Notes: generated by a model from the sequence alone, not told the origin. Shown: positions 1,648-43,220, counted from the whole stretch's first letter. The stretch: DNA of 45,177 nucleotides, filler included, from Jimgerdemannia flammicorona (GCA_003990765.1; 2 parts of 2 records of this genome joined end to end with filler, not necessarily neighbours in it), one strand, 5' to 3'. Numbers and translations: made by a program.

Positions 1648-3722
1648 TGTAAGAGGGTTACTTTTTAGGGTAACTGTTACGTAGTTCTGGAAGGGTTTTC
1701 TGGAAGTTCTGGATATTCTGGAAGACTGTTTTCTTATGGTCAAGATCAATTTCATATGGAGTACATCCTCTATGCTTATTGATTTCAAGATTGGGTTGAC
1801 GTCTCAACCAAAGTCCTTTCTCGGACTAGTTCTGGATGTTCAGGATTTTCCATATTTCAGGAAGTTCAAGAAACTAAGACCAGCTTAGTTGGATTGGCAT
1901 ATCGCTGCAGACAATACCCAATTAGGAAATTTCGTGATGGGGTTAGGAGTGGGACCTAACAGAGAGCAGATTTACTTAAGAGTGGTTTGTGGGTTATTAA
2001 ATAGGTTTATTCGCTATTCATGATATTACTATACTAGGAGTAGTTGTATGAAGGGATATTGTGGGGAAGTGCTCAGGAGTTGTGTTCAGATTGTTCAAGT
2101 CTGTTTGAGTCTGAGATTCTGAGGTCTGGGGGAGGGAGTATTTATACTAGTGAGGGGCTATCTGAACTATGCTGAATATGGATGTAGCACTAAGTGCCTT
2201 ACTGAGTCGGAATGCAGTCACATAGTACAAGTGTGATCTGATATGTCAAGAGATCGTCTGACTGCTGAGTCAGTTCACAGTCACATCATACAAGGCTAAT
2301 TTAACTATACTATGACTGCTAGACTATTTATAGGTTTAGACACTATCTGGGTAGTCCTCGATGACATCACCATCGATTGCATCATCTCTGATGAAGTAGT
2401 TGTCTAGGAATAATGGTTCGCGAATTACTTCTCCTTGTTGGCTGAGGTAATAATACATTGGAACTTCATCTCCGTCCCACAGGATAGCATCATCTGTTTC
2501 GTATGCTGGATAAGGTGTTGGTGGGCGAAGGATGGGTGTACTGTCTTTGCTTTCATCGGATTCGCTATCTGCGTACCTTCTATAGATTACAGCACTATGA
2601 GTTGCGGAGTTGTAGTAAGCTGGCGGCTGTGGTTCAAGTCGCTCATACTCAAGTGGTAGCATTGTTGGTTCAATCTCGAGGGTTGTCTGGAGGTACAGGT
2701 TGTGTTCTCTGGTCTCTTCATTATAGTTGAAGTAGTCGGGGGTGAACGCAGGTTGGTATTCATGCCAGTGGTCATTGTCCCAATAAGTCTTGTATGTGGT
2801 TATGAACTATTGTAAATTCATCGGCAAGGTTGGCAGAGTGATCAGGGTTGGCAGAGATCCTTGGCTAGAGGTCATGTCGGCGTCAGAGGGATCATTGTCT
2901 TCTACTTCATCTTCATCAAAGTGGATTATATCGTAGACATCCTTCATGGCGTATCCGACTTGAGGCATTTGCAGGATATGGTCATCAGGGTGTGGGAAGG
3001 TTCTGTCTGTAGTTTCGACATACTCGAGGTACTTGTGGTTGATTTCTTATATCATGTCATCGATTTGGCCGTAGGACAGGGTAGAAACCATTTCACTGAT
3101 AGTGACTCGGAGGCAGGGAATAAAGGTATTGTACTCGTAGAAGAGTTCTCAATGTTTGCAGGCGATGAGCTTCTGGTGTTGAGACATCTGGGTAATGTCT
3201 GTATCATGGTGGTGTTCGACCATATCTTCCAGGAGGCAGCCGATCTGGTAGTAGCTTGAGATTTGTCCGATTCGGTAGGCCTCGCTAAGCATGTTCAGGG
3301 CGTTCCATCGGGCTTCCATGAAGTAGAGGGGTGCCAGGCTATGGATATTCATGAGGGGCAGAGGGGGTGTGGCTCGGTTGATAATAGCATTCCAAATGTC
3401 AGTACGGATGCAGTTGTAGATCTCAGTGGTCATGTTTGTGTGTTTGGAAGTTGTGGTTGTTATTTGTTTTGATTCTCTGATTCGACGCATCTTGGTGCTC
3501 GGTATATATGCATTTGGTCCTGATTGGTAAGATTCCATTTGTGTAGATCTTGTGTTCCGTGACTTCATATTGACTCAGCTTTGTGTGCTGTGACTTTGGT
3601 TTGACTCAGCTTCGTGATCAAGCAGGTGATTTCCAGATATGTTCAGAGGTCGCGTGTAATTTCAGTGGCTTTGTTCAGAGGGTGACATGTATTTTCAGTG
3701 GCTTGGAGGTTGTGCGCTTACA
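1648..3722 (-). repeat. 5' LTR of copy A (2075 bp, contains ORF-X)
   Basis: Inverted termini TGTAAG/CTTACA. Minus-strand TATAAATA near 2139-2146 and AATAAA at 2006-2011. Colinear with 5797-7297. Confidence 0.9.
2336..3568 (-). pseudogene. ORF-X: LTR-encoded accessory protein of unknown function (411 codons, 3 transition-derived stops)
   Basis: ORF-track ORFs 3149..3568 and 2336..2662 are one frame with no frameshift. Contains YYQIGCLL...IACKH*ELFYEYNTFIPCL...LSYGQI and an acidic tail. Confidence 0.8.
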
Positions 3723-4429
3723 TGCAGTAATTGCCCAGAATGTAGCAAATAATACCCCAGGATATGGAGCCCATCCTGCAGCCCCTGGACTCAAATAACT
3801 CATGATTGCTCAATATCACAGTAAAACCATGATTGCCAAATCTTGAGTTAAACTCTGCAACCTCAAATTTGATATATATGGCAAGGAGGAATTTGAAACC
3901 TTCTGTATAAAACTCAAGTCACTTCTGAACACTATTGGCCTAAGATACATTACCAATGATGAAGCATGAAATAGTACAAGAGTAGACCATTTATTTGATA
4001 TACTACCTGAATGGCTTATAAGGAAAATCTGAGAATAAGGTCACCCAGTTGGTTGTGATCACCAACAATGGTACCTGGTAAGAATCAAGACTATGGTTAA
4101 GTGAATCCTAACAGCTGGACCAATTCTGCCTTGAAGACAATTTAACAATAAGGAAAAGACTTGGACTAAGAAAGAAGAACCTAAGCATAAAGCATCTTAA
4201 GCTCCCTCAACATCTACCTCATGAATACTCCAAAATCATGAATCCATCTAGCTGAGTATCTTCAAGAAACTCACTGAAGGAGAAAGAAATGAACTTCAAA
4301 GAAGTGGAGCATACTTCTATTACTAAAAGACAGAATATATGACCAGTGTCTGCCCTAACTGAAAATCCCAAACAGCAACATATGCAAGTGTTACTACTCT
4401 GCACTACCTCAATAATCTGACTATCAAAA

Positions 4430-4840
4430 TACTGAACTTTATTAAGTTAAGATAAACTGCTAAGGCTCTAACTAAAGAAAGTCAAAAAGCAGCTAGATAT
4501 GACCTATATATAGTCAAAGAAGTTACAGTTTCCAACTGAGAAGTCAAGCAAATCTATATAAGAATCAGCATCCAAATTCCTAAAGGATATATTGAAAGAA
4601 TATGCTATCACAGCAGCCTAGTACTGAAAGAACTCTCAGTAGAAGGAGGAGTTATTGATAAAAATTATACAGGTGAAATTATTGTTCTTATCTGAAATCA
4701 TAGTTAGACACCCTTCAAGATCCCCATTGGTTTCTGCATTGCTCAGATCCTATTTGAAAAAATCAAGTCAACTCTGATAGTCAAGGAAGTCTCTGAACTA
4801 CTACTTATCATCCAAGGATCTAAAGAATTTGGCTCATCAA
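4430..4840 (+). pseudogene. dut: dUTPase (copy B, between zinc knuckle and protease)
   Basis: ARYDLY...SSL...VEGGVIDKNYTGEI...IAQILF...GSKEFGSS, i.e. trimeric dUTPase motifs I-V. Confidence 0.9.
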
Positions 4841-5059
4841 ACAAAGCTCCAGCCCAACCTATCATGAGTAAAGAAGAACAATTCTACAAAAAAATTAAAG
4901 ATAGATATATACTCAGTGGTTAATACCCCTATAGCATTAGAATGTACTCTTTTTAAATAATTAATGATTGCTTCTCTTGTGTCAATGAACTAGCTCAAAG
5001 AAGAACCAACAGAAGAAAAGCTCTTATAACTGAAATCACTACCATTGGATCAGACAAAC

Positions 5060-5410
5060 TACTTATACTTTAAGCTTTTGTCAACTGAGTACTTATCAAG
5101 ATTATAATAGACAGTAGTGCCTCAGGCAACTTCATCAATAAAGAAATAGCCAATAGACTCAAGGTCCTGACATCTCCAGTACAACAAACTCAAGCAGTTA
5201 TTATAGCTGATAGAATCTCTCATATTATTAGTAAGGAAGTCTGTAACCTGCCCTTCCAAATTGGTAACTACTGAGTATATGTTACCCTCCAGATTATACT
5301 ACTTCTTGACAATAAAATCATTCTTGAAACCCTATGGTTGAAATAAGAGAATCTCATGATTGATTGGATAAAATATTCTCTGACCATCAAGAAAGGATAC
5401 TATAACTTCA
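5060..5410 (+). pseudogene. retropepsin aspartic protease (copy B)
   Basis: IIIDSSASGNFI at ~5101-5136 and IILETLWL (degraded ILG.PWL) at ~5320-5340. Confidence 0.85.
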
Positions 5411-5796
5411 AACTGTAAGATGAAAAGGACCCACTCAGCTCTAGTAACTCTAGACCAAAGGTCACTTATATAAATAAGCTACAGCTCAAGAAATTGGCTA
5501 AGAAATGCCCTCTCTTTGCCATCTCTATCTGCCTATCCAAAGAAGAACCTGAGAACTCTGAAGAAGACTTTTCTAAAGTTAACAGCTATGTTAGACTCTT
5601 ACTCCAGAAAGTCTGAGATATAATTCTGAACTGAACTACAAATCCACCTACACCTGTTATTATTAATAACCAAGAAGAATACAAAGTTGACAAATCCTCA
5701 ACAAATACAGTCACAAGAACCATTCAAATGATACAATAATACTAGATCAAATTAGAAGATCTTGATGAGGATATCAAAAGCTAAGAAGGAGAGAGT

Positions 5797-7297
5797 TATA
5801 AGTACATAACCTCTAAGCCACCAAAATCATATATGTATCATCCTCAGAACTAATTTAGAAACCATATACAAGACTACAAAACAAGTTACTAAAGAGATCA
5901 CCTGATTATACAAAATATGCCAGCAAGCATAAGAACCTACTGCTAAGATACAAGAATACCAGAAGAAATACTACAACTATAAGACTGATCCTAAACCACT
6001 ATAACTAGTTTTAGTATACTATACTATTACAAAAGGAAACTAAAGTACCAAACTCAAACCAGGATGAGAAGAACCCTATCTCATCTATCAAAAGTTCATA
6101 AACTACACTTATTAACTCAAGACTAAGATATACCACAACTATATAAAGACTTCATTACTTAGTAGAAGTAAAATTCATTTAAACAACTCCATTCACTCTA
6201 TCTATATCACCTCTATTGAAGGATGACAGATACTTTATCTAAACTCAAGAAAGCCAACATTGTCAAAACCAATCTCAAGCTCATCCATATAATAGATATT
6301 ACTACTAGAAATTGTCTCAAATTATAGAAAATATCATTTCCAAGAGGTTCAAACTCTCAGCTGCAATATTGAGAGCCCTCACTCTAGACAAGAATGATTA
6401 GTCCTTACAAATGTGCCAGCAGTCCAAAAAAAAAAAAAGAGAACCAAGATCTGTTATCCTTATATAACCACTACCACCAAGGACAGCCTTAATCTTACAA
6501 GAGATAGAGGTGATGATATCTTTGAAACTGATGATGTCAGAAGTTAGAAAACTACTCAGACTTTGCCAGAGATAATGTTATCAATAGTGATATCATCAAA
6601 GACTAACCAGATAGTATCTAAATCTATAAATAGCTTAGTAGTCATAGTATAGTTAGATTAGTCTTATATGATATGACTGTGAACTGACTCAGCAGTCAGA
6701 CAATCTCTTGACATGTTAGATCACATTTGTATTACATGACTATATTCTGACTCAGCAAGGCACTAAGTACTATACCCATTTTCAGCATAGCCCAGATAGC
6801 CTCTCACTAGTATAAATACCCCTTCCCTCAGACCTCAGAATCTTAGACTTGAATATATAAGAACATTCCTGATCACTTCTCCACAATATCTCTTTATACA
6901 ACTACTCTTAGTATAGCAATATCATGAATAGTGAATAAACCTATTTAATAACCCACAAACTACTCTTAAGTAAATCTGCTCCCTATTAGATCCCACTCCT
7001 AATCTTGTCATGAAATTTCCTAATTAGATATTGTCTGCAGCAATATGCTGATTCAACTAAGCTAGTCTTAGTTTTTTTGAACTTTCTAAAATATGAAAAA
7101 TTCTGAATATCCAGAACTAGTCCAAAAAAGAACTTTGGTTGAGATGTCAATCTGATCTTGAAATCAATAAGCATAGAGGATGTACTCTATTGAAATTGAT
7201 CTTGACTTTAAGAAAACAGTCTTCTAGAATATCCAGAACTTTCAGAAAATCCTTCCAGAACTATATAATAGTTACTCTAATAAGTAACCCTCTTACA
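5797..7297 (+). repeat. 3' LTR of copy B (1.5 kb, degraded ORF-X with deletions)
   Basis: Starts TATAAGTACATAACC (TGTAAGCGCACAACC in A) right after the PPT and ends CTCTTACA. TATA box at 6811, AATAAA at 6934. Confidence 0.9.
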
Positions 7298-7517
7298 GAA
7301 TGATAGGTAAAGAAAAAACTCTCATCAAAGTACATTACAGTAAATAGGGCCTGGTTCTTTCAGATGAGATAAGTAAAGGACTTATATATGAGGTGGGAGG
7401 AGATCTTCAATATCTTACTACTTAAGCCTATGAGCCTCAATCATATTGTTATATCAGCTCCTGATTCTAGTTGAGTATAGCCAAGATATCTAAAATGGGT
7501 AGCCTTGAGTCCTCTAA

Positions 7518-10354
7518 GAAAGTAGTATAATCTGGAGTATAATATATACTCATTAGTTATTAATTTGGAAGAGTAGGTTGTGGACTTTCTTGCTAATAAC
7601 ATGAGAGGTTCTATCAGCTATAGTAATGGCTTGAGTCTGTTATATCAGAGAGGTCAGGACCTTGAGTCTATTGGCTATTTCTTCATTAATAAAGTTGCTT
7701 GAGGAACTACTGTCTATTATGATCTTAATAGATACTCAATTAATAAAAGCTTGGAGGGTAAGTAGTTTGTCTGATCTGATAGTAGTGATTTCAGTTTTAG
7801 GAGTTTTCCTTCTATTGATTCTTCTTTGTATCAGTTTATTAATACAAGAGAAGCAATCATCAATCATTTGAGAAGAGTATATTCTAATACTATGGAGATA
7901 TTAATCACTTGGTATAAGTCTATCTTCAATTTTCTTGTAGAATTATTTCTCCTTATTTATAGTAGATTAGACTGGGATCTTGTTTGATAAGCCAAATCCT
8001 CTGAATTCTTAGATAGTAGACAGTAGTTCAGGGACTTCCTTAACTGTTAGAATTGATTCAATTTTCTTAATTAGGATCTGAGTAATACAAAAACTAATAA
8101 GGATCTTGAAGAGTATCTAACTATGATTTCAGATAAGGATAATGATTTTGCTTATATAATCTTTATTAATGACTCTTCCTTCTACTGAGAGTTCTTTTAA
8201 TATTAGGCTACTGTGATAGCATATTCTTTCAATATATTATTCAGAAATTTGAATGCTAATTTCTGATAAATTTACTTGACTTCTCAGTTGGAAACTATGA
8301 CTTCTTTAGCTATATATAGGTTATATCTAACTGCTTTTTGACTTTCTTTAGTTGGGGCTATAGTAGTTGGCCTTAATTTGACAAAGTCTGATATCTTAGT
8401 AGTCAGATTATTGAGGTAATATAGAGTGGTAATAGTTACTTGTATTACTGTTCAGAGTTTTCAATTGGGGCAGACACTGGTCATATGTTCTGTCTTTTGA
8501 CAATAGAAGTATACTCAACTTCTTTGGAGTTTATTTCTTTCTCCTTTAGTGAGTTTCTTGAAGATATTTAGCTAAGTAGATTCAGGATTTCAGGGTATCT
8601 AAGAGGTGGATGTGGAGGGAGCTTAGGATGCTTCATACTTGAGTTCTTCTTTCTTAGTCTAAGTTTTTTTCTTGTTGTTGAATTGTCTTTGGGGCAGAAT
8701 TAGTCTAGCTATTAGAATTTGCTTGACTATAGTCTTGATTTTTACTAGATACCATTGTTGGTAGTCATAACCAACTAAGTATTCTTGTTTGTAGATTTCC
8801 TTATAAGTCATTCTGATAGTATATCAAACAAATGGTCTGCTCTTGTACTATTTCATACTTCATCATTAGTAATATATTCTAGGCCAATAGTATTCAAAAG
8901 TAACTTGAGTTTTGTATAGAAGGTTTCAAATTCCTCCTTACTATATATATCAAATTTAAGATTGCAAAGTTTAGCTTGAGATTCAGCAATTATGAGCTGT
9001 TTGAGCCAAGGGGCCATGGAGTGATCTCTATACCTAGGGGCTTTATTTACTATATTTTAGGCAATAACTACAGGTTAGGTATTCCATATAAGAGATTTTT
9101 CAGAAAGAGTTTGTCACTATTCTTCAGTAGATCCTCAGAAGAATATAACAACTTAATAGATATAGACTATAGTAGTAGCAAAAGGTTGTTCCAGGGTGTA
9201 GTCTTGATTATTTGTTAGAAGATAGTCAGTAACTTACTCATTAGTCTATTAGTTAGCTTCAAAATTAGTATCAACTATACTAATGAAGCTTTGGACTTCT
9301 TGTATAGTACTATTGAAGATAGGTAGGCTTAGACTTTTTATTGATCAGATTTGGTTGACTAATATAGTAATGATTGCTACCATTATGGCTATCTGAGCTG
9401 TAAGATCTAGAATCTATTAATTTACTATATTGTTTACTGGAGGTAATTGGACTACTAGTAGTAGTATTACTGGTATAACTTGAGGTACTAGTGCAGAGTA
9501 TGATGGTGTTCTTTGAGTCTATATAAGTTGCTGGAATAACTATTGTGGGTCTGAAGTAGAGGCTTAATAGATAACTATCTATTGTCCTATAGGTGTGTTT
9601 TGTTCTGAGAGAGATATATCTCCTTTAGTAGTATATCTGAGATTGAATTTACTGAGATACTCCTCTTTCTCTTTACTTTGATCTCTGTATAATTGAGTTT
9701 ACTCAGCATCAAAGTAGATAGTATTGGTTATATATCAGATTTCAGATGAGCTTAATTCAAAAGCTAGTTCTAACTTAGTATTGGCTTCAGTTTCAGATAG
9801 GATTGATACTGAACCTACTTCTGATTCAAGATCAGATTGTTGATGAAGAGTTTCCCTGACCTCTTATTTAAGAATATAGTAGGCCTTATAATTCTGAAAA
9901 TAGTAATATAAGATAGACTTGGTCCTGGTATAGTGATAGTTAGTAGAGTTGAGCCACTTAACTATAGAGGCTCATGCTTTATAAGGAACTAAGACTAGAA
10001 AGACAGCTGCTAATTGTCCTAGGTTACTTAGATTTGTAGAGCTGGCAAAACTCTTATTAAGAAGAGTAAAGAAGACTTCTATAAGATCTTCTTCATCTTA
10101 ACTTATAGAGTGTAGAGTAAGAAGTTCAGTGTATAGAGTTTCATCTATCTACTAATTTAATTAGAGTACTTTTTTTTATAGATAAAGTCTGTCTCACTTA
10201 TTATAGGTATAGAGATCAAATTGTCCTTATACATTAGGTCTAATTCTCTTCAGATTATCAGATGGTTTAGAATGAATTTCAGTTCAGAGATTGGACTTTA
10301 TATTAACTTATAAGAATTCTTATAGAGGTTTATAGTGAAGTGAGGAAGTGACTT
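7518..10354 (-). mobile_element. Ty3/Gypsy copy C (A/B family), heavily mutated internal fragment: gag, dUTPase, protease, no LTRs
   Basis: 8770-10354 aligns with 1-1612. 7518-8770 aligns with the reverse complement of 4050-5305. Confidence 0.9.
7990..8400 (-). pseudogene. dut: dUTPase (copy C)
   Basis: Reverse-complement homolog of 4430-4840. Confidence 0.8.
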
Positions 10355-10422
10355 GATTCAGATTGAGTAATTCAGATTAATCCAAGTTAATTCAAATTTG
10401 AATTAACTTATTCAGAGTATTA
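10355..10422 (-). mobile_element. terminal fragment of the hAT family (left TIR plus subterminal repeats, inverted)
   Basis: TTTGAATTAACTTATTCAGAGTATTA is a transition-degraded reverse complement of TAGTGCTCCGAATGAGTCAATTCAAA at 31076. Confidence 0.7.
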
Positions 10423-12871
10423 GTCTATTCTAAGAAGTAAGATAAGAAGCTATTAATCAATAAAAATATTAAGTTATTACTTAAAGAATTCAAGAATATC
10501 TTTCCAGATAAGCTATCTGGTCTACTCCCTATATAAGAAATTGATCATGAAATTGAACTGACTCTAGAAGCTATACTACTCAAGAAATACATATATCACA
10601 TATCACCTCTTGAGATTGAAGTAGTCAAGAAAAAACTAGAAAAGTTACTTATATAAAAAGTCATTCAATTAAGCAAATCTCCCTATAGTTTACTAGTTTT
10701 ATTTATCAAGAAGAAAGATGATATCCTGTAACTACTAAGTACTTAACAAGCTTATAGTTAAGAACTAATATCTGTTACTCTTGATTGATCAAATTTTTGA
10801 TGCTCTTAAGAATATTAAGTACTTTACCAAGCTGGATCTTATATTAGATTACTATTAAATCCAAATTAAGTCAGAAAATATCTCTAAGACTATATTCATA
10901 ACTCTCTTCAGACTCTACAAATTTTCAGTCTTAGCATTTGGTCTTACTAATATACTTACTATATTTTAGACCCTCATAAATAAGATATTTAAGGACTAAC
11001 TATTTATCTTCTTGTTAGTATATCTTGACAACATCTTGATCTTTAGTATAACTAAAGAAGAATATCTTAAGTATATCTGAGTAGTTCTGGAGATTTTATG
11101 AAAATATAAACTATATACAAAGCTCAAGAAGTGTAAATTCTTTAAAGAACAAGTTAAATATCTTAGTCATATTATCTCTATATAAGGAATTCAAGTAGAT
11201 CTACACAAGATAGAGATAATTCAAGAATAGCTTATTTTATTAGACCTTACAGAACTTCAGTCCTTTTTTGGTCTAGCTGGCTACTACTATCACTTTATTT
11301 GAAATTTCTCTAACATTACTGAGCTACTGACTAATCTCATAAGGAAGACTCTTAACTCTGATCTCTATGTACTCTACATCTAGGATTTCTTTTATCAATA
11401 AGTCTTTTAAGAACTCAGGAACTGTCTGATCCATGCTCTAGTCCTATACAATATAGATCTAAGTCTGAAATTTACTATTACTACTAATTTTGTCATTAGA
11501 ACAGTCTTATTACAAGATGATGGTAAAAAATACTGCTCTATTGTCTTTAAGTCTTACAAGTTATCTCTGGCCAAATAAAAGCTAGCTACTCATGAAAAGA
11601 AGCTACTAGCAATAATATATATATTAGACTACTAGTAATACTATCTAGAAGGTATTGAGTTTGATGTCATTATTGATCATTAATTACTCAAGTATATTAA
11701 CACCCAATCTATTCTATTATATCTATAAGTTAAGTGGAGCCTAAAGCTTTAAACTTTCAATTCAATAATTATCTATAAGTCTGGAAAAATACTTATAGTA
11801 CTAGATACCTTATTCAGATGTCTAGACCTTATCATAATCATACAAGTTACCTTAGCATCAGAATTTCTAAACTAAATCAGACAAGCTTACAAAGAAGACA
11901 CTATTGTTACTAGAGATTTCTCAAACAAGCTCAAGGATATATACTATCAAGGACAATCTGATCTACCATCAAGACAAAGTCTATCTATCTGACAATATAA
12001 ATCTATACTATAAGATACTATAAGAATACTATGACTCCCTACTTACTGGCTATCTTGAAATTGAGAAAACTGTCAAAAATATCTAATACTACTACTATTG
12101 ACTAAATATAATTAAGAAAATCAAGAACTATATTGCTAGCTATAACCTCTATCAGTGTAATAAGTTTACTAACTAAGCACTAGTTAGTTTACTACAACTA
12201 CTGCCAATCTCAATTAAGAAGTTTAAATAAGTTATAATGAACTTTATAACTCAACTACTATAAACTCAATCTAGTACTGATACTATCATTATATTTGTTG
12301 ACTACCTGATCAAGACTATGATTGCTGAACTCATTACTACCAATGCTACTATACCTAAGATTACAAGAATCTTCTTCAAGTCTATCTTCTATCACTATGG
12401 CCTATCATAAGTAATTATCGGTGATTGTTATCCTAAGTTCACCAGTTACTTCTGATAAATACTCTTTAAGACTCTGGAAACCCAATTGGCTATATCTACT
12501 ATCTTTCATATATAAACTAATAGACAAACTGAGTCTATAAATAGAACCTTAAAGAAAATACTTAAAAACTATATCTCTTATAAGTAAGATAATTAGGACT
12601 ACTATCTGACTTATATAGAATTTATATTGTAATAGTAATTCCAGAATAATGACATCAGCACAGGAGACAGCCTTTCCTTATAAGCCACTAGATTGGAGCA
12701 CAAGAAGATCATATAGTATATGAGATGAGCAATAATGACCAACTATGAGTCATTGTGACCACAGCACAAGCATCCTGAAGAATATAAAAGAAGAATCAAG
12801 GAACTACAGTAGCAGCAACCAATAAGAACCACCAATTCCAAAATAGCTCAAATATTTACCATAAAACAAAA

Positions 12872-13703
12872 ATGCCTGCTGCATGCCAAACCTCAAGGTC
12901 AAGGAATCACCAAGATATCTCAGTTAAGGAAAGGATGTTCCAAGACATCAGAAGAGCCATGAGGATCTGCTCAAGAAGGACTCCTAGTGTCAACCTGGGT
13001 ACTGCAGACCCTTATCACTTTATTCTCTACCACTGTGAAATGGAAACAAGGATTACCTTTGCTACCAAATGCCTCCAAATATGGCAGGAGTATGAAATAG
13101 GAAATCTCCTCTGCTGGGAGTTCCCACAGGCCAGCACCCAAGAGCTACAAGATGCCACTCCTATGGATATGCGAAACAAGAATAGCTAAAAAAATCCATC
13201 AGATCTTCAGGCATGCACCATGGTTGATCCCCAACTTGGAGTATGTTAGAGTCTCAGATTTCAGAGATCTATCATTCTGCCATATCAATGCACTAGAAGC
13301 CAGGGTGGCTACAGAAGCCCAGTCCACTATTACCCTCAACAGAGAAGAAGTAGAAGACTTCTGGCACCCTATCCTTCAGGACAACCCAGACCAATTTCTG
13401 CAAGGATTGATCTCAGTATTCTAAGGCCCAAGCATCCAGGTTAGATCTCCACAAGACCCCATATTTGTTTCCTATTTTGTAGAAGAGAACCTCATAGACT
13501 AGAGAGCTCCAGATCTTGTTCCCGATTTTCTCACCACAGTCGAATGTGATGACGTCATCAGTGATGATATCATCCCACGTGACATCGACATATACAAGAT
13601 GCATAATGAAGCATACGAAAATGATGAATTCATAGATCTCATCTCCTTCAGTGATGATAATGACAAGGATGAAGCTCCCATAGTCCTGAACTTTCTGCTC
13701 TAA
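12872..13703 (+). pseudogene. ORF-X homolog inside solo LTR E
   Basis: 12872..13189 and 13152..13424 joined by one frameshift, then read through two stops to TAA at 13703. YEIGNLL...IAKKIHQIFRHAPWLIPNL...DFRDLSF plus acidic tail. Confidence 0.75.
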
Positions 13704-13711
13704 GTTCTGTG

Positions 13712-13878
13712 TTACACTGGATAATACCAGCACTGGTATTCTCATGTAACACTGGATAATGCCAGCACTGGTATTCTCATATAACACTGAATAATGCCAG
13801 TACTGATATTCTGAGGTAATACGAAATTGTTCCAGCACTGGCATTTTGATGTGATACTAAATAATGCTAGCCCTGGAA
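13712..13878 (+). repeat. 35-bp tandem repeat (about 5 copies) in LTR E
   Basis: Unit TAACACTGGATAATGCCAGCACTGGTATTCTCATG, located between ORF-X and the TATA box. Confidence 0.85.
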
Positions 13879-14797
13879 CTTAGTAGTTTTAGTTATTGAA
13901 ATTTATATTTAGCTTTATATCTTAGCAACCATTAAATTATATTTTGTATAAATACCCCTCTTATTTCCTCTGAAATAAAGTCAGTTCTTCTCAGTATAAT
14001 ATACACACTTCCTTGCAAGCCATCTAAGAGATAACAAGACAGTTAAAGATAAGAAGTTTGAGGACTATAAGACCTTGGGAAGGCACTCCAATAAGAACTT
14101 ACTTATAACAACTTGAGTTAGTCTAAGAAATATATCTTGAAGAGAATCTGGTATATTTGAAGGACTCAGTAACCACTATATGACAATATATAATAATATC
14201 ATCTAATTATCTACTGATCTTTTCTCCTTTCAGCTACTCTATGATCAAGATTCCAAGACCTCTGCAAGTCTAGTCTCTTTCAAGAAAAACAGTCAAATAT
14301 AAGTTCCTACTACTAAGAATCTCATAGATAAGATAGATAAACTACTAAGATTATTACTATAAATCTTCAGAAAGCCCAATAATGCTAAGTCAAATATACT
14401 GATAAGAAGTGCCATAATGTCATATATATTATTAAAAACTAAGTTCTACTGTCTACTGAGAACCTCAAGATAAGATATAATCTCAAGTCAACTATCTATT
14501 AAATAAATTTCATTTCAAATATATTAGACTCTTTAAGATTATCAAATAAGTCTCAGTATTCTTCCACTATCTTTAGTTATCTGAAACTATAAGGATACAT
14601 CCAGTTTTTTATATATCATATCTTAAGACCTAAAACTAATTACCATTCTACTCTAATTAAATTCTCAAGCTATCTGCCCTCATGATTATTGAAGACTCTA
14701 TTAAGTATAAAGTTGAGAAAATTCTTAACAAATTAATCTGCTACCATTGTCTTGAATATCTAATCAAGTGGATAGACTACTCTGAATATGATACTAC

Positions 14798-15273
14798 TGT
14801 AACATAGTGGACGCTAAGATGGGCAAGTATGTCAGATTTCTGTATCTTGAAAACTTGACCATTCCGACTCTTGCAGAGTCTCTTGAAGTTGTAGGGGAGG
14901 GTGGGTGAGTTCGAAGTGTATCTGCCTACAGACTTACTAGTTCCTTTGCTATCTCTTTACTTTGAACTATTTCGATCTGAGGTTTATTCACTCGAAGATA
15001 CTGGGTTATTTATACAAGTTTGCTAGCTATGAGAGGGTGGCTAAGTAATAAATGAGTCATTTGAACTTTGTCAAAACATTTGGACAATATCTAAATGCTA
15101 TACTAAATCGGGGTATTCAATTTAGATAATGTCTAAAATTTAGACAATGTCTAAGAATTTAGACAATGTTGAAATCGAGGACTGCTAACTATAAGGCTAT
15201 ACTACTTTGGGACTGGATGCAATCAAGTGTCTATTCCCTATTTCCTTCTTCCAAATTTGGCTGTATCATCACA
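14798..15273 (-). repeat. 3' LTR of F
   Basis: TGTAAC...ATCACA; direct repeat of 21051-21526. Confidence 0.95.
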
Positions 15274-15310
15274 ACTTCCTCCTGAATGGATGATCTCATC
15301 TCTGAGGCAT

Positions 15311-15772
15311 CTATTCAAACTTCCAGGCTTCAATGGTCTGTATGGTCTTGTACTGTGCAATTTGCTGTATGACTGTTTCCCAATGATGTCTCTTCACTTT
15401 CTTGAAGTCAGTGGGGGTTACTCCTCTCACGTAGTCTATTGCTGCTTCATCTTCTCAGAATAACTTGTGGATCCTTTTGGCAATAGTGATCTGTGAGTGA
15501 GAGAGTTGACACTTGGCAATCCAGTCCTCTTTGGTCTTTGCTGGATCCTGATTAAGCACCTGTCCAAGCTTGAAGTACTCTTGGAATTCTGCACGATACT
15601 GATAGGCTCTAAAGTACGAGATCCAAGAGAGATGAGTCTGCACAATACTCTGAATATCCTCATAGTATGCCTCTATGGTTGGAGGCTTGGTGGTGTACTA
15701 TTGTCTTTCAATGGCTCTTTGGGCAGCACTAGTGATCTTGAGTGCCATCGCAGTACTTTTGTTACTGGCCAT
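15311..15772 (-). pseudogene. ORF-X homolog at the env position of F (154 codons, 2 stops)
   Basis: MASNKSTAM...YFKLGQVL...IAKRIHKLF*EDEAAIDYVRGVTPTDFKKV...WKFE*. The ATG overlaps the last 11 nt of pol. Confidence 0.8.
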
Positions 15773-18700
15773 GATATTTCTTGAGTCAGTTTTGGTGAAT
15801 GGTGGTAGGGGTTATTGTGTCTGAGGGTTTTTGTAGCCAAAAGGTGGTCCCTTTTATATCTTGCACAAGGTAAGGTCCTTCCCACTTGGGCTCCAGTTTT
15901 CGTGACCATGAAGCTTCTACCATATTCCGATACACTAGGACCTTGTCTCCTATCTTGATAATCTCCAAGAGCTTGTGGGTCTTTTCCACATTCCTCCATT
16001 GTAGTGTCTGTGCCTTGGTTATGTAATCCTTGGCCTTCTTCCTGATTTGGTGTAGTCTCCATATTTCCATATCCACATGTTTCCATACAGTATCTCCATT
16101 GGATGATAGGGTTCCTTGAGAACATTCTTCTCCGAACAGCATTTCTCGAGGGGTAAAGTGGGTGCTTTGTGATCGGATATCCCGGAGAGCAGATAATGCT
16201 ATTGGCAGATAGTGATCCCAGTTCTCGTAGTTATCACAGATCTTGGCGATAACATTCTTGAGAGTTTTGTTGGTCTTTTCTACTTGTCTATTTCCTTGGG
16301 GGTGATAGGCTGTGGTCCGAATGTGCTGGATCTTGTACTTCTTGTAGAGAACCTCAAAGAGCTAGTTCACAAATTCTGTTCCTCTATCTGTAGTTACTTG
16401 TATTGGGGTCTTGAATCAGCAGATGATTTCCTTGTAGAAGAAATTGGCAATTGACTGTGCATTGGCTTCCTTGAGGGGTCCTGCTTCTATCCACTTCGTA
16501 AAAAGGTCTATGATGACAATGATGTATCAGTTACCAGTCAGGGTCAAGGGTAGAGGGCCAATTACATCCATTGCTATATGGGCAAATAGTACTGGTTCTA
16601 TGTGTGCTGATCCTAGAGCTTGATTCCATTGGTCTTGTTTCTGTTTCTGACATTTGTCGCATGTCTTGACAAATTGTCTGATATCTTCCTCCATCTCTGG
16701 CCACTATATTGTTCTTATTGCCTTGTCATATGTATTCGTTCCTCCTAGATGGCCAAGTTCATGTACTGATTTCATCACTTGCTCTTTCTTGTGTTCTGGT
16801 ATGACCAGTAGTTTTCCTTTCTAGTATTTCTCTGTCAGTTTCGAATTGTTTCTATGTCTTGTTGATAATCGTTTGTATCCATTCTTCCAGATGTTGGGGC
16901 ATCTTTCGCTGTCCCAGGTATATGATAATTCTATAGTAGAGCTTCTTATTCATGATTGATTTGTTGGTTAGAGGTAGTTTGAGGTGTTCGTGAGAGAGCA
17001 TCTGTATTGGAATTTGTTCTTCCAGAGTGGTGTACGATGGTTACATCATAGGCTTATAACTTCATTATCCATCTGGTATAGATTCCCTTAGGTTGTTCAG
17101 TTGTCAGTAGCTAGGTGAGAGCTGAGTGGTCCGTCTGGATGGTGAAGTGTCTTCCAGCCAGATAGTAGTGGAACTTTTCCACAGCCCAGATGACTGTAAG
17201 GCATTCCAACTTATAAGACTTGTATTCTTTTTCAGCCCCTCGGGTTCCGCAGCTAAGATATACAATGATATACTCTTTTTTATCTTCTTTTTAAGCTAGG
17301 ACTGCTCTTAGTCCCTGTGTACTTGCATCTGTCTGAAGGATAAATTCTTGGGTCCAATTGGGTCATCTGAGGATGGGTGTCTGAGTTAATCTGACCTTGA
17401 GTTCATCAAATAATTTTTGTTGTCTGTCAGTCCACTGGAACTTGGTATCCTTCTTGTTGAGTTCATAGATTGGACCTGTGATGTTGGAGAATCCTCTAAT
17501 GAATCTGTGATAGTAGGAGGCAAGTCCCATGAAGGCTTGGGCTTCTGTGACAGTAGTGGGCCCTGAGTATGCTGCTACTGCTTATATTTTGAGGGGGTCT
17601 GTGTGTGTTCCATCTTGATTGATAATATGGCCAAGATAGGAGATCTCGATTTCTGTGAACTTGCACTTCTTGGGTTTGATATAAAGGCCATGTTGTCTTA
17701 GTCTCTTCATTATCTGCTATATGTGCTGCAGATGTTCCTCAGGTGTCTTGCTGTAGATGATTACATCATCGACATAGGCCATTATCCATCTTCCCATGTC
17801 ATAGCAGAAGATTTTGTTCATCATTTACTGGAAAGCTTGCTGGTGCATTGCACATTCCGAATGGCATTCATAGGTAGATATAGGTTCCATCTGGAGTGAT
17901 GAAGGCTGACTTTTCACTTGCCATCTCTGTGAGTCTGATTTGGTGAAATCCTGAGTATAAGTCCAAGGTACTGTAGTACTCTGCTTCATCTCCCAGTGTT
18001 ATAAGGATGTCACTGATAAGCGGCAGTGGTTGGCGATCCTTCTTGGTAACTGCATTGAGCTTCCTGTAGTTGACACAGAGCCTTGGGGCAAATTCTCCAG
18101 GTTTGCTTCCTTTTTTTGGGGCTAGTACAACTGGTGAAGACTAGGGGCTGCTGGCTTCTTTGATGATGCCAGCTTCTTCCATCTGCTTGATTTCTTCTCT
18201 GAGCCATTCTTGGTAGGCTGGTGGGACAGGTCTTGCCTTCTGGTAAATTGGTTCGGTGTCTCTGGTATCTACCTTGTGATAGTAGTGTGGGATCTTTCCC
18301 TTGATATCCTTGAAATCTGTGGCAAGGACATCCTCGAATTTGTGGAGTATTTTCTTGAGTTCCTCCTTAAGTGGGAATTCATCTCCAATGGTATAACTGT
18401 GCTTGCTCATGTCCTCCTTCTTATGCTCGAGTTCAGTAATCTTGGTGCTAGTGAATACTCCTCTTCCTGTGGATCCAAATCCTTCCTTTCCTCTTTTCAT
18501 TTCCTCCAGATTCTTGACTTCTATAATCCTTGGCTGTATGATTGGGAAGATCAACATCTGTGCCAATCAGTCCTTCTTCTTGACTGGGAATGGAATTGTA
18601 GGATTGTGGTTCCTAGCAATGAGTAGAATTTCTCCAGTATAGTCTGAATCAATGACTCCTCCTTCGATTGTGATTTCGCTTCTAGCCAGGCTGCTTCTTG

Positions 18701-19600
18701 TCTTGAGAATTCTGACATGATCCTTTGGGATGGTCATCTCTAGTCCAGTTGTGAGTAGGGTGGTTGTCTGAGGTTCCAGTACAGTTTCTTCTACTGTAGC
18801 GATATCCATTCTGGCTGTATTTTCTGACTTGTATTCTGGCAAGACTACATCAGGGTGGATCTTTCGAATCTTGACCTTGATTTCTTCTTCATCATCACTG
18901 TCCTCCAGAAGGGCTGGTGGTTCATCATCTTCCTCCTTCTCTTCTTCTCTGATCTATTTTTCAAGAGCTTTCTGCCTTCTTTCCTGGTAGATCTTGTTGG
19001 TTCTGATGGTGCACGGGTAGCAATCATTGATATGCTCCATACAGTACATCTTGATTCCATGAGGACAGACTCCTTGTGGGGCATAGCCTTCTGTGATCTT
19101 CTTGCACTATTCTTCTTCACTCATCCATCCAACTTTCTTCTTCTTTGGGGTAGTCACCATATAAGCTTCCTCTTGCTCACTCTCTTCTTCCTCCATATTG
19201 GGCAGGACTCCTTTGTTGATGTTGATGGAAATTCGTATCTTCTGTCCCCGGTAGGTGATCTGCATCTTCTGAGCATTGAGATCAATTACCACCTTGGCTT
19301 TGTGAAGCTATTGATTGCCGATGAGGATGTCATAGTTGGTGGCATTGGTTACGATTACATTTACTGGAATTATTGCTCCTCCAATCTTGATGGAAACATC
19401 TCGGATCTTTCCCAGAGGTATGGCTCTTGTGCTATTGGCTGTGACAAATACTAACTTAGTTGCTTCTTCCACATCCCAACCTAGGCAGTCTGCTGCCTTC
19501 TTACTGAGGAGACATCCTCCTGCTCCCATATCAATGATGGCTTCAAAGGTTCTATCTTCAATTTGGTATATTGCATAAGCAGAGGTTTTGCGATTGTCCT
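15762..19600 (-). pseudogene. pol: pol of F (protease, dUTPase, RT, RNase H, integrase)
   Basis: IIDMGA protease (~19530), YVDD (~17765-17776), RNase H LQTDAS (~17330), HELGH...CDKC zinc finger (16665-16765), WEGPY (~15875). Confidence 0.95.
18465..18860 (-). pseudogene. dut: dUTPase of F (between protease and RT)
   Basis: ARMDI...TRSSLA...IEGGVIDSDYTGEI...AQMLI...RGKEGFGSTG. Confidence 0.95.
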
Positions 19601-19919
19601 CACTTTCTTCTCCTGAGTTCTCTTGAACATTATTGGCCTAAGTTATCTTCCATCCTTGTTCCTTGGTTGTTTCAGCAAGTCCAAACCTCATTTGCTGTCT
19701 GAATGTTGGGATTTCTGTGAGCTGACCAAAGATTGCATTGACCTTTTGTTGACTGAGATCCTTGAAGATATTATACTTGAAGGTCTTGGTCTTGCAAAGC
19801 TTCTTTTCTTTTTCTCCTTCACTGGCTGGAGTGGTTCCTCAGATGATATCTTGAACTGCTTGCTCCAGCTCGATATCTTGGTCCATCTCTTCAGCTTGGC
19901 TTTCTGTGGCAGTTTCTAT

Positions 19920-20936
19920 TTACTTTTCCACTGGGTTCTTCTTGGGTCTTCCTAGCGGTCTCTTGTAGGGTTCTTTGCAAGCATCCTTCTTAGTGGTCTG
20001 AGCAGGATAGGCCTTCCATTCCTCTTTATCGGATTCTCCAATTTCTTCAAAGGTGATTGTATTGGTCTGCTCCTTGTTTCGTGTGGCATTGCTTGATTGA
20101 GCCTTACATTTGGTTTCACTCATACATTTGTAGGAGTAGTGGCCTTCTTCTCCACAGCTGTAGTAGGTACCTTTCTTCTTGTCTGAGGTGATGGCAAACT
20201 TCTGAACAGAGTGGCGATCTCTTCCTCGGATTTCCTTTACCACATCTCCCAGGTGGGCAGTCATTTCAGCAAACCTTTTGGCGAGTTCCTCCATAGGGTC
20301 ACTGTTCTTTTGCTGCTCTGTAGCTTTTGGCTGAGGTGTGTTTCGATTGATCATTGTAGTGGGGATCACACTGGTTACCTTGGGTACCTCGATTCTGACT
20401 CCTGTAACTCTCTCCATTGTATGGTCTTATGGGTGTCTGGCTATCCAGTATCACTGAGCATAGGTGACCTTCTGTGGCAGATCCAGAATTACTGGTAATG
20501 AGCAGATGGCCATGGCTATTTCTGGATGGACTCCTTTCATGAAGGTTGCTTCGGCTACTTGATCTCAGATAGCAGCAGCATAATCTACAAGGATTATCTG
20601 ATATCGAATTCTGGTATAGAATGTGTTTGGATCCTTGCTCATTCCTTGGCATATTGTGTTGAGCTGATCCTTCAGGGCTTGCTTGATCTCATCTGTGTAA
20701 TATATATTTCAGAGCCAGATCTTCTGTGCTGTCAGTATGGCATTGGTATTATTTCCTGCATGGGTTGCAGCTGTGAATACTGCTCTGGCAGGGCCTCGTA
20801 GGCTGAAGAGCATGAGGACTACTTGCTGTGCTGCTGTCAGAGTCCTTACAGCAGCATACTGCTCGAAATCATCAATGAAGGTGATGATTGATTCATCTGA
20901 GATATATCCATGGAATACTGGCAGTCTCATATCCAT
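19920..20936 (-). pseudogene. gag: gag of F
   Basis: LPVFHG...FIDDFE...LRGPA capsid-like region; knuckle YYSCGEEGHYSYKC near 20125-20165. Confidence 0.85.
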
Positions 20937-21050
20937 CTTATCTGGGTATTGGGGCTTGGTTTGTATGGTTGTTTGGGTAGTGGTGGTTGTTCATTGTTTA
21001 GCTTGAAAGTGAGGAATTCATCTTAAATTACCAGCCAATGGGCACCAAGT

Positions 21051-21526
21051 TGTAATGTAGTGGACACTAAGATGGGCAAGTATGTCAGATTTCTGTATCT
21101 TGAAAACTTGACTGTTCTGACTCTTACAGAGTCTCTTAAAGTTGTAGGGGAGGGTGGGTGAGTTCGAAGTGTATCTGCCTGCAGACTTACTAGTTCCTTT
21201 GCTATCTCTTTACTTTGAACTATTTCGATCTGAGGTTTATTCACTCAAAGATACTGGGTTATTTATATAAGTTTGCTAGCTATGAGAGGGTGGCTAAGTA
21301 ATAAATGAGTCATTTGGACTTTGTTGAAACATTTGGACAATATCTAAATGCTATACTAAATCGGGGTATTCAATTTAGATAATGTCTAAAATTTAGACAA
21401 TGTCTAAGAATTTAGACAATATCAAAATCGAGGACTGCTAACTATAAGGCTATACTACTTTGGGACTGGGTGCAATCAAGTGTCTATTCCCTATTTCCTT
21501 CTTCCAAATTTGGCTGTACCATTACA
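21051..21526 (-). repeat. 5' LTR of F
   Basis: TGTAAT...ATTACA with adjacent PBS at 21031-21047. Confidence 0.95.
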
Positions 21527-21912
21527 CTACTTAGAAACTACTAGTTAATCTTAAAAACTCCCAAGACCTAGTCCAAGACTTTGAGGTAAAATATATTATC
21601 CAATCTTTATAGTGACTTCTTGGAATTATTGACAATCTATAATAATAACTAGTACCTTATATATTAGAAGTTTACTTTGAGATATCAGAACTAGCAGAAT
21701 ATCTAGTAAACAAAAAGTCTACTAAAATGAAGCTACTAGCTGGATTTGAATCTCTCCTAATTAGTTAGTCTGATAATAAATTCTCTGTCCTATATAAGAA
21801 TGACCAGTTCTTGCCAATGTACTGATATAAGTTGAGAAATTTTAATTAAGTATATTTAGTCTGGTATAATCTAAGAACTTAATACGAATATTAATTCTTA
21901 AGGAGGGAGGAA

Positions 21913-22377
21913 TGTAATAATTTTATAGCTATATTTTAATTTTAATACTTTTTATATCTTTTCTGCTAGTCTTTTCTTGTCTTTTCTTAAATATTCTACT
22001 ATATTCCAGTATCTTCTAAGTATTTAGAAATATTCTCTTAATACTAAGACATCATTAGAACATTTTTATTTTTTCTCAGTACTAAGTAGTACTAAGTATC
22101 TAATTATAGAATCTTTTGGAATATTGTAGAATTCTATTAGTCATCTTTGTCAAAAATCCATTTCTTAGTCTTTCTCTTCTTTTTCAAGATCATTCCAGAT
22201 CTTTCTTTCAGATTTTGTATAAATATCCTTATTCTCCACTTGAATAAAGCTTAGAATATTTTCTCTTAGAATTCCTTTGAGAATCCTTGAACCTATAAGT
22301 ATCTCTTCAAGCTACTTTAGACCTACTAGAACTACCAGATTTAGCTACTTTCTTTTAAAGAAACTAGAACTATTATA
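21913..22377 (+). repeat. 3' LTR of D (465 bp)
   Basis: Follows PPT AAGGAGGGAGGAA; homologous to 27484-27947. Confidence 0.9.
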
Positions 22378-22539
22378 TACTATACACTTAATAATTAAGT
22401 ATTAGAAGCTCTCAGCAGACTTTTTCTATAAGAATTACTTAGTGAAAGCTTATATATTATACTTAGTAAAATTATTTAGTAAATATTAAAAATATATATA
22501 CTGATAATATTTCAATATTTGATTGGTCTTATCTTATAA

Positions 22540-22639
22540 NNNNNNNNNNNNNNNNNNNNNNNNNNNNNNNNNNNNNNNNNNNNTTAATTAATTAANNNNN
22601 NNNNNNNNNNNNNNNNNNNNNNNNNNNNNNNNNNNNNNN
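22540..22639. other. assembly gap / artificial contig linker
   Basis: 44 N + TTAATTAATTAA (stops in all six frames) + 44 N. Confidence 0.95.
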
Positions 22640-23374
22640 TTTTTTAAGCAACAGCTATAGATGTATAGACCTTCTAGTTGGATTAATACTTTGAACTCAC
22701 AGAAATGGAAGATGATATGCAAGTCTAATTTGCTACTACACTTCTCTGAGGAAATGCAGCCATCTGGTGGTGCAATTATATCATAGTTATATATATACAT
22801 AAATCAGAGATTGGGAAGAGCTCTTCATAAGTAGTTCAAGTCTACTAATGCCACCAAGCTAGCCAGAGATAAGCTAGTGAACATCAAGTAACTCAAGTCT
22901 ATACAAAGCTACAATATACAATTCTTGTCAATCCTATTTGAGCTACTAGTGGTATCTGAGGATAAAAAGATAGACAACTATGTCTGAGATCTGAAGGGAA
23001 ATATACAAGTCAAGATTGAGCTAGAAGAGCCCAAAACTCTTAATGAAGCCATGAGAATTGCTGATAGATTTAATGTCATCATCTTTGGTAACTACTTCAA
23101 ATCAGAATGCCACAAGAAGAACCACTTCAAGAACTACTACAGAAACCAACCAAGGACAGTTGGCCTAGTATCAATAGACTTAGACACTATGAACAAAAAG
23201 AACACCAAGCTCACCCCTGAAGAAAAGGACTGTCTGAAGAAATCCAGAACCTATTTCTTCTGTTGTCAAATAGGACACATTACAACCAAATGTCCTAGGA
23301 AGACTAGCAAACCCTCAAGACCAGTTACTGTATTGTTCAAGAACATATCTGTCAATCCCACTACCAGTCAACTT

Positions 23375-23780
23375 GAGCTCAAGATTAAGAAGCTTCATCT
23401 GAAGGCCCAGATCCCTCAATATCAAATAGAAGGAGCCATTGGTCTTGATCTACACTCAGTCAAACAAGTCACTATTCTAGCTAAGGGCTGTACTCTAGTA
23501 TCTACTAGAATTGCAGTTCAATGTTCTGAAGGACATTATGCTAGAATTGCACCACAATCAGAACTCAGTGTCAAACATCATTTAGATATAGACACTAGTT
23601 TGATTAATCCAGAGATAAGTTAAAGTCTTGCTTATCAACCAGAAGAATCAAGACTATACAGTTAAAGAAGGAGACTGAGTCATGCAAATGATCCTAGAAA
23701 AAGCCAGCCAACTCAAGATTACAGAAGTCTAAGAACTCTCTGAAATCAAATAAGATCAAAAGGGTTTTGGCAGCACTGAT
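23375..23780 (+). pseudogene. dut: dUTPase of G (between zinc knuckle and protease)
   Basis: AIGLDLHS...YARIAPQSEL...MQMIL...KGFGST. Confidence 0.9.
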
Positions 23781-26700: not shown

Positions 26701-27483
26701 AGTATGCTAACAAGAAATACCATAATATCACTTATACTATTGGAGATCAAGTCCTACTGTCTACCGAGAACCTCAAGATACAATCTCAAGTCAACTGCTC
26801 TTTGAATAAGTTCCAACCCAAGTATATTGGACCTTTTGAGATCACTGAATAGGTCTCTGCATCCTCCTATCATCTCAAGCTATCTGAAACTATGAGAGTA
26901 CACCCAGTATTTCATGTGTCACACCTCAAGACCTGGAACCAGTCACTACCCTACTCTGGTCAAATTTCTAAGCCTTCCACCTCTGTGATTATTAAAGACC
27001 ATATCAAGTATAAAGCTAAGAAACTCCTTGACAAATGAATCTACTACTGCCATCCTAAATACCTAGTTAAGTGGATGGGTTATTCTAAATATGATACTAT
27101 CTGAGAACTACTGGTCAACCTCAAGAACTCTCAAGATCTAGTTCAAGACTTCAAGGCAAAACACATTGCTCAATCTCTGTAGTGACTTCTTTGGATTATT
27201 AATGACCTATAGTAATGACCAGTACCTTATACATCAGAAGTTTACTTTGGAACCCCAGAACCAACAGAACATTTAATGAACAAGAAGTCCATTGAAATGA
27301 AGCTACTAGCTAGGTTTAAACCTCTCCTAGTTGATTAGTTTAGTAATAGGCCCTCTGCCCTATATAAGAATGGCCAATCTCCACCAATGTGCTAATACAA
27401 GTTTGAGAAATTTTGGTTAAGTATATCTAGTCTTGTGTTACCTAAGAACTCAATGAGGATATTGGTTCTTAAGGAGGGAGGGA

Positions 27484-34725: not shown

Positions 34726-34932
34726 GCGGTCGAAGTCACCGGTTCAGGTCCCACAGGTACCTTGGCCCTGTGCTGCAGCACTGCACTGGTGGTACTACAG
34801 AGCAGGGCCAAGGAGCCAGTAGGGCCCTACATAACGGCTAAGCTAGTGCTATATAAGAGGCGCTCGGCCCACATAAGACTGCCCAACCTGCACAAAATGG
34901 CTGCCTAACCCACATGAAAGATTGCCTAACCC

Positions 34933-37468: not shown

Positions 37469-37482
37469 CATTCGGAGCACTA

Positions 37483-43206: not shown

Positions 43207-43220
43207 AGATAGATAATATC

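Follow-up and report, generated by a model that had tools for sequence, protein, structure and literature searches.

A probable accessory gene family, ORF-X, inside or next to the long terminal repeats of Ty3/Gypsy retrotransposons in Jimgerdemannia flammicorona

A stretch of 45,177 nt from Jimgerdemannia flammicorona (GCA_003990765.1; two parts of two records joined with filler), referred to here as the window, was analysed for an open reading frame (ORF), designated ORF-X, that accompanies several families of long terminal repeat (LTR) retrotransposons. The window contained nested Ty3/Gypsy-type retrotransposons with signatures of protease, dUTPase, reverse transcriptase, RNase H and integrase, and the element map was drawn from self-BLAST and inspection of the junctions. 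Family A was present in three copies: A1 on the minus strand from 3722 to the window start, A2 on the plus strand (3720-7297; 5'-truncated and with an internal deletion), and A3 on the minus strand from 10356 to 7520. Family E was present as the tandem copies E1 (10429-14796, plus strand) and E2 (approximately 22.4-27.1 kb). Element F (14798-21526, minus strand) was inserted in E1 with a GTAG target duplication, and its two LTRs were 476 bp each, with TGT...ACA ends and 95.8% identity. E1 and E2 (window 10429-14796 and 22382-27951) formed an apparent tandem pair with one common LTR (21536-22381), and the insertion point of element F lay in E1 just ahead of that LTR. Two runs of 44 N (88 N; 22540-22583 and 22596-22639) lay between the common LTR and the gag of E2.

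Three copies of ORF-X were located in the window. Copy A ran from 3574 to 2336 on the minus strand (412 codons, three in-frame stops); its candidate start methionine was either the one at 3490, which is conserved with copy E, or the one at 3433, where the intact relative P0013 begins, and it had a long C-terminal extension ending in an acidic tail. Copy E (12872-13703, plus strand) started with a methionine at 12872 and its frame ended at 13701-13703; a +1 frameshift was located between 13112 and 13178, and stops were found at 13422 and 13500. Copy F ran from 15772 to 15311 on the minus strand (153 codons plus stop), started just past the integrase frame, and had premature stops at codons 25 and 106. 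A first-pass annotation had read three ORFs in these frames with their core motifs in one register, and this reading held: the spacing from YYQIG to LIA was kept, being 28 codons in A and 88 nt (29 codons plus the frameshift base) in E.

All three window copies were broken and decayed. Their stops were located at positions where relatives had sense codons, and each lay one C>T or G>A substitution away from a sense codon; the exception was the copy A stop after codon 175, where P0013 also ended and P0009 read through. The older element copies had about 30% G+C, driven by C>T/G>A changes. These changes made up 249 of the 350 differences between A1 and A3 and 298 of the 447 between E2 and E1, with CpA favoured. 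Over the intervals compared (26-1613 vs 8796-10356, 24279-26496 vs 10429-12627, and 1648-2390 vs 6567-7297), they accounted for 67-74% of the differences between old and young copies, and 42-58% of them fell at CpA, a signature resembling repeat-induced point mutation. Ascomycete repeat-induced point mutation typically leaves a transition pattern of this kind.

Outside the window, about 23 relatives of ORF-X were found, mostly as uninterrupted ORFs. Copy F had six relatives with 63-75% identity, including the uninterrupted 153-aa protein P0003. A HMMER search of 1.84 billion representatives with the F-family profile returned four proteins, among them the distant 165-aa P0011 (E 1.1e-4). A metagenome scan led to L001, a near-intact F-type element with an open ORF-X of 153 codons, and to L002, in which the C-terminus of an integrase was followed by P0011. 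A search with a mixed profile gave 15 proteins, comprising 13 of the P0011 type (G type) together with P0013 and P0009. The G-type proteins were 57-92% identical, keeping their motifs while their linkers varied, and P0011-P0019 were uninterrupted with lengths of 140-168 aa. P0013, uninterrupted over 128 aa, was 88% identical to the core of copy A, and P0009 matched the C-terminal 251 residues of copy A (63% identity, 80% similar). A search with the G-type alignment found a relative encoded in none of 66 candidate stretches of prokaryote genomes and none of 22 stretches of viral contigs, and the ESM Atlas, queried with P0003 and P0016, gave no usable lead. The L001 contig (1-372, 6254-6479) began about 77 nt before its LTR, with the end of ORF-X and the polypurine tract, and ended in the LTR, so the contig either wraps around the repeat or derives from a tandem or circular form. 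The LTR of L001 had 21-bp tandem repeats at 174-277.

Direct comparison of the window copies gave weak scores. BLASTP aligned A with F at E 0.23 and returned no alignment for A-E or E-F. In tblastn of F against the whole window, copy E was the top non-self match, with non-significant values (E 0.11-0.47). Smith-Waterman shuffles gave p values from 0.0009 (second half of E vs F) up to 0.16, and the raw pairwise similarity was not significant. A hidden Markov model built from F and P0011 and run against the six-frame translation of the window gave 2.0 bits for A and 3.9 bits for E, scores no better than that of a noise match (3.6 bits).

Profile comparison was then based on 18 outside sequences of the F and G types (F/G profile), none of them from A or E. 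With hhalign, this profile matched P0013, the intact relative of A, with Prob 88% and E 3.2e-6 over 124 columns, and the second half of copy E (13101-13421) with Prob 68% and E 4.6e-5 over 54 columns. In a shuffle control on an earlier, smaller profile pair, the observed hhalign score was 27.2, which none of 200 column shuffles (mean 11.6, sd 2.3, maximum 23.3) attained. All profile alignments fell in the register proposed in the first-pass annotation, and the family motifs [YF]x[ILM]G...[LMN] and xIAx[RK]xxx[LI]F were found at fixed spacing. Homology of the family was accepted because the outside relatives and the profiles gave significance where the window pairs were too weak. The presence of a common domain of about 130 residues in A, E and F was confirmed at the level of sequence profiles, and the earlier proposal of one protein family across the three ORFs was upheld, the profile alignment exceeding its shuffled controls. 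In copy A, the domain was assigned to 2996..3433 (minus strand) by hmmsearch, the profile used for this extent including P0013, so that the match there is by construction; the independent value is that of the F/G profile against P0013.

The reading frame of ORF-X was constrained. Between copy F and the ORF-X of L001, the proportions of nonsynonymous (pN) and synonymous (pS) differences were 0.21 and 0.81 (pN/pS 0.26), while the other two frames of the same DNA gave pN/pS of 1.0 and 1.8. For the integrase of the same pair, pN was 0.087 and pS 0.49. The substitution pattern marks ORF-X as a gene under purifying selection that would be genuinely protein-coding; together with the uninterrupted relatives, it bears out the earlier suggestion of an old, selected gene conserved at the protein level. 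On another explanation, the similarity would come from cis-acting DNA or RNA signals in the LTR or near the polypurine tract, or from chance, and the ORFs would be incidental. The non-significant raw pairwise comparisons within the window, the failure of the first half of copy E against the F/G profile and the broken state of all three window copies speak for this explanation. It is largely refuted by the significance of the profile comparisons in one register, by the frame-specific constraint, by the many uninterrupted relatives that kept their motifs across variable linkers, by a confident model of the domain and by LTR bodies without DNA similarity (both described below); we regard it as highly improbable.

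The LTR of family A, read as the 5' LTR of A1, occupied 1648..3722 on the minus strand (2,075 bp), with a TGTAAG start and a CTCTTACA end. It was followed by the primer binding site (PBS)-like ACTTGGTAGTAGCGG and then by gag, and the whole of ORF-X lay within it. A TATA motif, AGTATAAATACTCC (2135..2148, minus strand), followed the ORF-X stop at a distance of about 190 nt, placing ORF-X in U3; the order in A1 was LTR start (3722), ORF (3574-2336) and TATA motif (2148-2135). In A2, the polypurine tract AAGAAGGAGAGAGT (5783..5796, plus strand) lay at the end of pol, directly before the start of a decayed 3' LTR (5797..7297, plus strand). This LTR had a TATAAG start, homologous to the TGTAAG of A1, and a CTCTTACA end, and contained a transition-riddled remnant of ORF-X (tail at 6544-6618) and a TATA motif at 6809-6822. 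The gene in A2 also followed the integrase, behind a pol end that was chromodomain-like by eye.

The boundary between A1 and A2 was determined by transition-tolerant local alignment. Homology began exactly at TGTAAG in A1 (3722) and TATAAG in A2 (5797); upstream of this point, A2 had AAGAAGGAGAGAGT at its pol end and A1 had an unrelated inverted gag. Both copies ended with CTCTTACA, after which A1 continued into the PBS-like sequence and gag and A2 into unrelated DNA. From the shared start and end, and from the PBS and gag after A1, the LTR of family A was taken to be 2,075 bp long and to include ORF-X. A reading of A1 as a truncated tandem copy instead of a 5' LTR was rejected, since it needs a break exactly at the junction of polypurine tract and TG.

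Copy E was located in a solo LTR of a fourth family (12628..14185, plus strand; 1,558 bp, TGTAAT...TGACA, ATAT duplication), which sat in the integrase gene of E1 and was absent from the sister copy E2 at 26496. E1 matched E2 up to 12627 and again from 14186, and E2 was continuous at 26496 in an open integrase frame. The 1,558-bp insert started with TGTAATAGTA and ended with CCACTATATGACA, ends that resemble those of the F LTR. The TG...CA ends, the ATAT duplication and the lack of internal terminal repeats identify the insert as a solo LTR from a fourth family, with ORF-X inside it. Two other assignments were rejected: copy E as a gene of element E, because E2 was uninterrupted across the site, and the insert as a small element with LTRs of its own, because it had no internal terminal repeats. 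In this solo LTR, the LTR start (12628) was followed by the ORF (12872-13703) and a TATA motif (13945-13958). An array of 35-bp tandem repeats (13679..13888, plus strand), which looks like a U3 enhancer, started about 25 nt before the ORF-X stop and ended upstream of the TATA motif.

The TATA motif TGTATAAATAMYCC, allowing at most one mismatch, had five matches in the window against 0.09 expected. They were located in the A1 LTR, the A2 LTR, the solo LTR and each F LTR, all in sense orientation. In A and in the solo LTR it followed ORF-X; by eye, the motif also occurred in L002. The LTR bodies had no significant DNA similarity to each other. The earlier statement that the LTRs show no evident DNA similarity is therefore right for the bodies and needs correction for the termini and the one TATA motif, which were common. 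By these positions, ORF-X is placed in U3 in the A and solo-LTR lineages.

A different layout was found in element F. The integrase stop was followed by ORF-X, and 27 nt after the ORF-X stop came the polypurine tract AGGAGGAAGT (15274..15283, minus strand) and then the LTR, starting with TGTGATG; L001 had the same layout. The 3' LTR of F (14798..15273, minus strand; 476 bp, TGTGATG...GTTACA) had its TATA motif at 15003-15016, and the 5' LTR (21051..21526, minus strand), 95.8% identical to it, was without ORF-X. In F and L001 the polypurine tract follows the ORF, which thus lies outside U3, and in the F type, with L001, the junctions put ORF-X inside the element as a single copy that would not be carried by the LTR. 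In F, L001 and L002, ORF-X was located directly 3' of the end of a Ty3/Gypsy integrase on the sense strand. The first-pass annotation had taken ORF-X as a third gene of these Gypsy elements and asked whether relatives lie 3' of integrase or inside LTRs. A third gene fits only F, where it stands between pol and the LTR; copy A lies inside an LTR and copy E in a solo LTR.

The ATG of ORF-X preceded the pol stop by 44 nt in L001 and 56 nt in L002, in the +1 frame. Ty1 and Ty3 use +1 frameshifting. These points would suit ORF-X as a structural or integration cofactor, i.e. a C-terminal extension of Pol or integrase made when some ribosomes shift +1 at the end of pol, with a role in the particle or pre-integration complex such as nuclear import or target tethering. 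The overlap with the end of pol was always +1, and by eye the integrases of F and L002 ended without a chromodomain-like stretch, which A has. On the other side, ORF-X of the F and G types had its own conserved ATG, and the ORF of A began in the frame of pol but about 40 codons past a pol stop conserved between A1 and A2, with more stops on the way. A Pol extension is consequently judged improbable, and a separate gene placed after pol is the reading followed below.

For the protein, AlphaFold2 was run with a 20-row alignment headed by the G-type P0016 and gave a mean predicted local distance difference test (pLDDT) score of 78 and a predicted template modelling (pTM) score of 0.70. Residues 1-140 were predicted as six helices, mostly with pLDDT >86, and the tail (142-164) had pLDDT <50. 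An earlier AlphaFold2 model from six close F relatives (pLDDT 53) was too poor for use. Foldseek against the PDB (best E 0.35), VIA-align against 48,161 chains (best Z 3.5) and BFVD (best E 0.56) gave no match that stood out. Pfam returned no family for P0001 and P0003; sub-threshold matches included RAMP (E 0.012, copy A) and TBK1_ULD (one of eight members). A sequence search of the PDB gave only an asparaginase at E 0.22 and nothing relevant. The ORF-X domain is accordingly modelled as an all-helical domain of about 130 residues with a fold that has no known match, and the possibility raised against the earlier proposal, a match to a described retroelement domain, did not materialise in these searches.

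No transmembrane segment was found, the maximum 19-residue Kyte-Doolittle mean within the ORFs being at most 0.95. As noted in the first reading, ORF-X did not resemble an env-like third ORF, such as those of the errantivirus or Athila type: it had no hydrophobic anchor and no Pfam env match. An acidic, aromatic and disordered tail was found in most members; it was present in the G, A and E types and minimal in F. The net charge of the last 40 residues was -14 and -15 in two G-type proteins, and copy A had -38 overall. G types ended in EGEYPPFIDFG...ELDEWDL and F types in EAWEFE, and the tails of A and E had a common [ED]P[LI]F[LV]..YF motif (by eye). The helical core with an acidic tail in A and E, proposed from the sequence, agrees with the all-helical model of residues 1-140 and with the charge of copy A.

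Genes at the 3' end of the RNA are known from retroviruses. Foamy viruses have the accessory genes tas/bel1 and bet 3' of env, running into the U3 of the 3' LTR. Tas, an activator that binds DNA, has an acidic activation region and is the model for the proposal made below. Like tas and bet, ORF-X is a small non-structural gene at the RNA 3' end, overlapping or inside U3; it differs from them in showing no sequence or fold similarity in the searches above, in its fungal host and in an element without env. The sag gene of mouse mammary tumour virus and the nef gene of human immunodeficiency virus type 1 (HIV-1) are ORFs that U3 contains or overlaps, and the polypurine tract precedes the gene or falls within it; their products are a type II membrane protein (Sag) and a myristoylated protein (Nef). 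The A-type and solo-LTR forms of ORF-X are like sag and nef in that the polypurine tract and LTR start lie upstream, so that the gene is in U3 and in both LTRs. Unlike sag and nef, ORF-X has no hydrophobic segment and no similarity to them, and the F-type gene is outside the LTR.

Taken together, ORF-X is probably an accessory gene family of fungal-type Ty3/Gypsy elements, in which the polypurine tract stands upstream or downstream of the gene depending on the lineage. In both layouts, pol would be followed directly by the gene, at the 3' end of the genomic RNA. The difference would be the point at which plus-strand priming starts: before the gene, so that it is duplicated together with the LTR, or after it. 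In the A type and the solo-LTR family, an upstream polypurine tract would bring the gene into both LTRs and leave it behind in solo LTRs, and the U3 gene would lie upstream of the enhancer-like repeats (solo LTR) and the TATA box. A subgenomic or spliced RNA might serve as the template for translation of ORF-X, or ribosomes might re-initiate after pol.

Within this accessory-gene reading, it is proposed tentatively that the protein may act in trans on element expression, i.e. as an LTR transactivator, one of the two roles (transactivator or silencing suppressor) that the first-pass annotation had suggested. The helical domain would serve in binding, and the acidic-aromatic tail in activation or recruitment. 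A trans-acting regulator is the best guess because of the architecture of helical domain and acidic tail and the position like that of retroviral regulators. In its most far-reaching form, the proposal would make ORF-X the gene for a regulator in a 'complex' fungal retrotransposon, with a new fold and a role in transactivation or anti-silencing; in some lineages the polypurine tract would have moved across the gene, which would then be copied into both LTRs, and each solo LTR would be a dispersed gene-plus-promoter module that could go on providing the factor in trans for all of its family. This extended form is rather doubtful.

Several observations weigh against an accessory gene coding for a transactivator. 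The pN/pS of 0.26 is to be read as a ratio of proportions only, dS between F and L001 being saturated, and the number of intact relatives is biased upward by gene callers, which list open frames only. The first half of copy E (12788-13186) had no significant match to the F/G profile (E 0.34); only the A family matched it, weakly (E 0.03). The LTR boundary of the A type was drawn from two decayed copies in one window. Foldseek, VIA-align and BFVD revealed no DNA-binding fold, and HTH_Tnp_Mu_2 gave only a faint match in two of eight members (E 0.03). The acidic end of the F type (EAWEFE) is very short, so a long activation tail is not universal.

The same tail and position could also serve a different role, in which ORF-X counters host genome defence (RNA silencing or quelling, heterochromatin, DNA editing) and the tail sequesters or misdirects a host factor. 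Retroviral accessory genes at this position often antagonise defence, as do foamy virus Bet and HIV Vif and Nef, and this shared genomic position speaks for such a role. A small novel domain with a disordered acidic tail suits a protein-protein decoy, and the host mutates its repeats heavily, with C>T/G>A at 67-74% of differences and CpA enriched. Against it, the Pfam, PDB and fold searches gave no similarity to known suppressors, the window copies were themselves mutated with no sign of protection, and no host partner is known. Antagonism of host defence is thus held to be unlikely, and regulation of element expression in trans is kept as the working proposal for the accessory gene.

Additional ORFs have been described in other LTR retrotransposons. 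The available text of Novikova et al. 2010 (PMC2864245) mentions an 'additional ORF with unknown function' for certain Gypsy elements of fungi, some of them with dUTPase. That text gives this ORF no sequence, position, family definition or relationship to the LTR, and the ORF may or may not be ORF-X. Excerpts of other reports describe ORF0 upstream of gag-pol in rice Retrosat2, RIRE3 and RIRE8 (PMC3485330), the antisense brtn gene of Botrytis Boty-like elements (PMC8365987) and additional ORFs in bdelloid rotifer LTR retrotransposons (PMC5408684). As far as these excerpts go, ORF-X is like rice ORF0, Boty brtn and the bdelloid ORFs in being a lineage-restricted accessory that evolves faster than pol. 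ORF-X is set apart from ORF0 and brtn, as they are described there, by its sense orientation, its position 3' of pol and its location in the LTR in some lineages. A literature search for an ORF within a retrotransposon LTR found nothing relevant. The ORF-X family appears to be previously undescribed, and its product, from its sequence, an accessory protein without a described domain.

Extra genes are rare in LTR retrotransposons outside env, and their acquisition is a step that separates simple elements from complex retroviruses. ORF-X would add a selected accessory protein of no known fold that is common to at least four diverged Gypsy lineages. With one gene on either side of the LTR boundary, the family may offer a natural experiment on the origin of U3 genes of the sag/nef type. 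Long LTRs and solo LTRs may hold protein-coding capacity that annotation pipelines call non-coding. If ORF-X does regulate transcription or silencing, it would give a handle on how elements survive in fungi that mutate their repeats.

Further features were observed in the window. The gag of family A had an apparent long acidic, Q/P-rich N-terminal extension (650-1540 and 9390-10283, both on the minus strand), without a Pfam match; it was a 296-codon open frame in A1 and was in frame with the gag core in A3. The dUTPase preceded the protease in A and E but followed it in F (regions 4460-5395 on the plus strand, 22988-24035 on the plus strand and 18570-19637 on the minus strand). Another repeat was present as two copies of about 2.4 kb with 74-78% identity (27948-30335 vs 34928-37483). 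One of its copies was G+C-rich, with a minisatellite of 15-bp period (36166-36409) and repeats of about 94 bp (34223-34610). A fragment resembling the E LTR lay inverted at 37481-37862. The region 38000-45177 had few long ORFs and a very strong, sustained skew of G over C (0.44-0.57 per kb).

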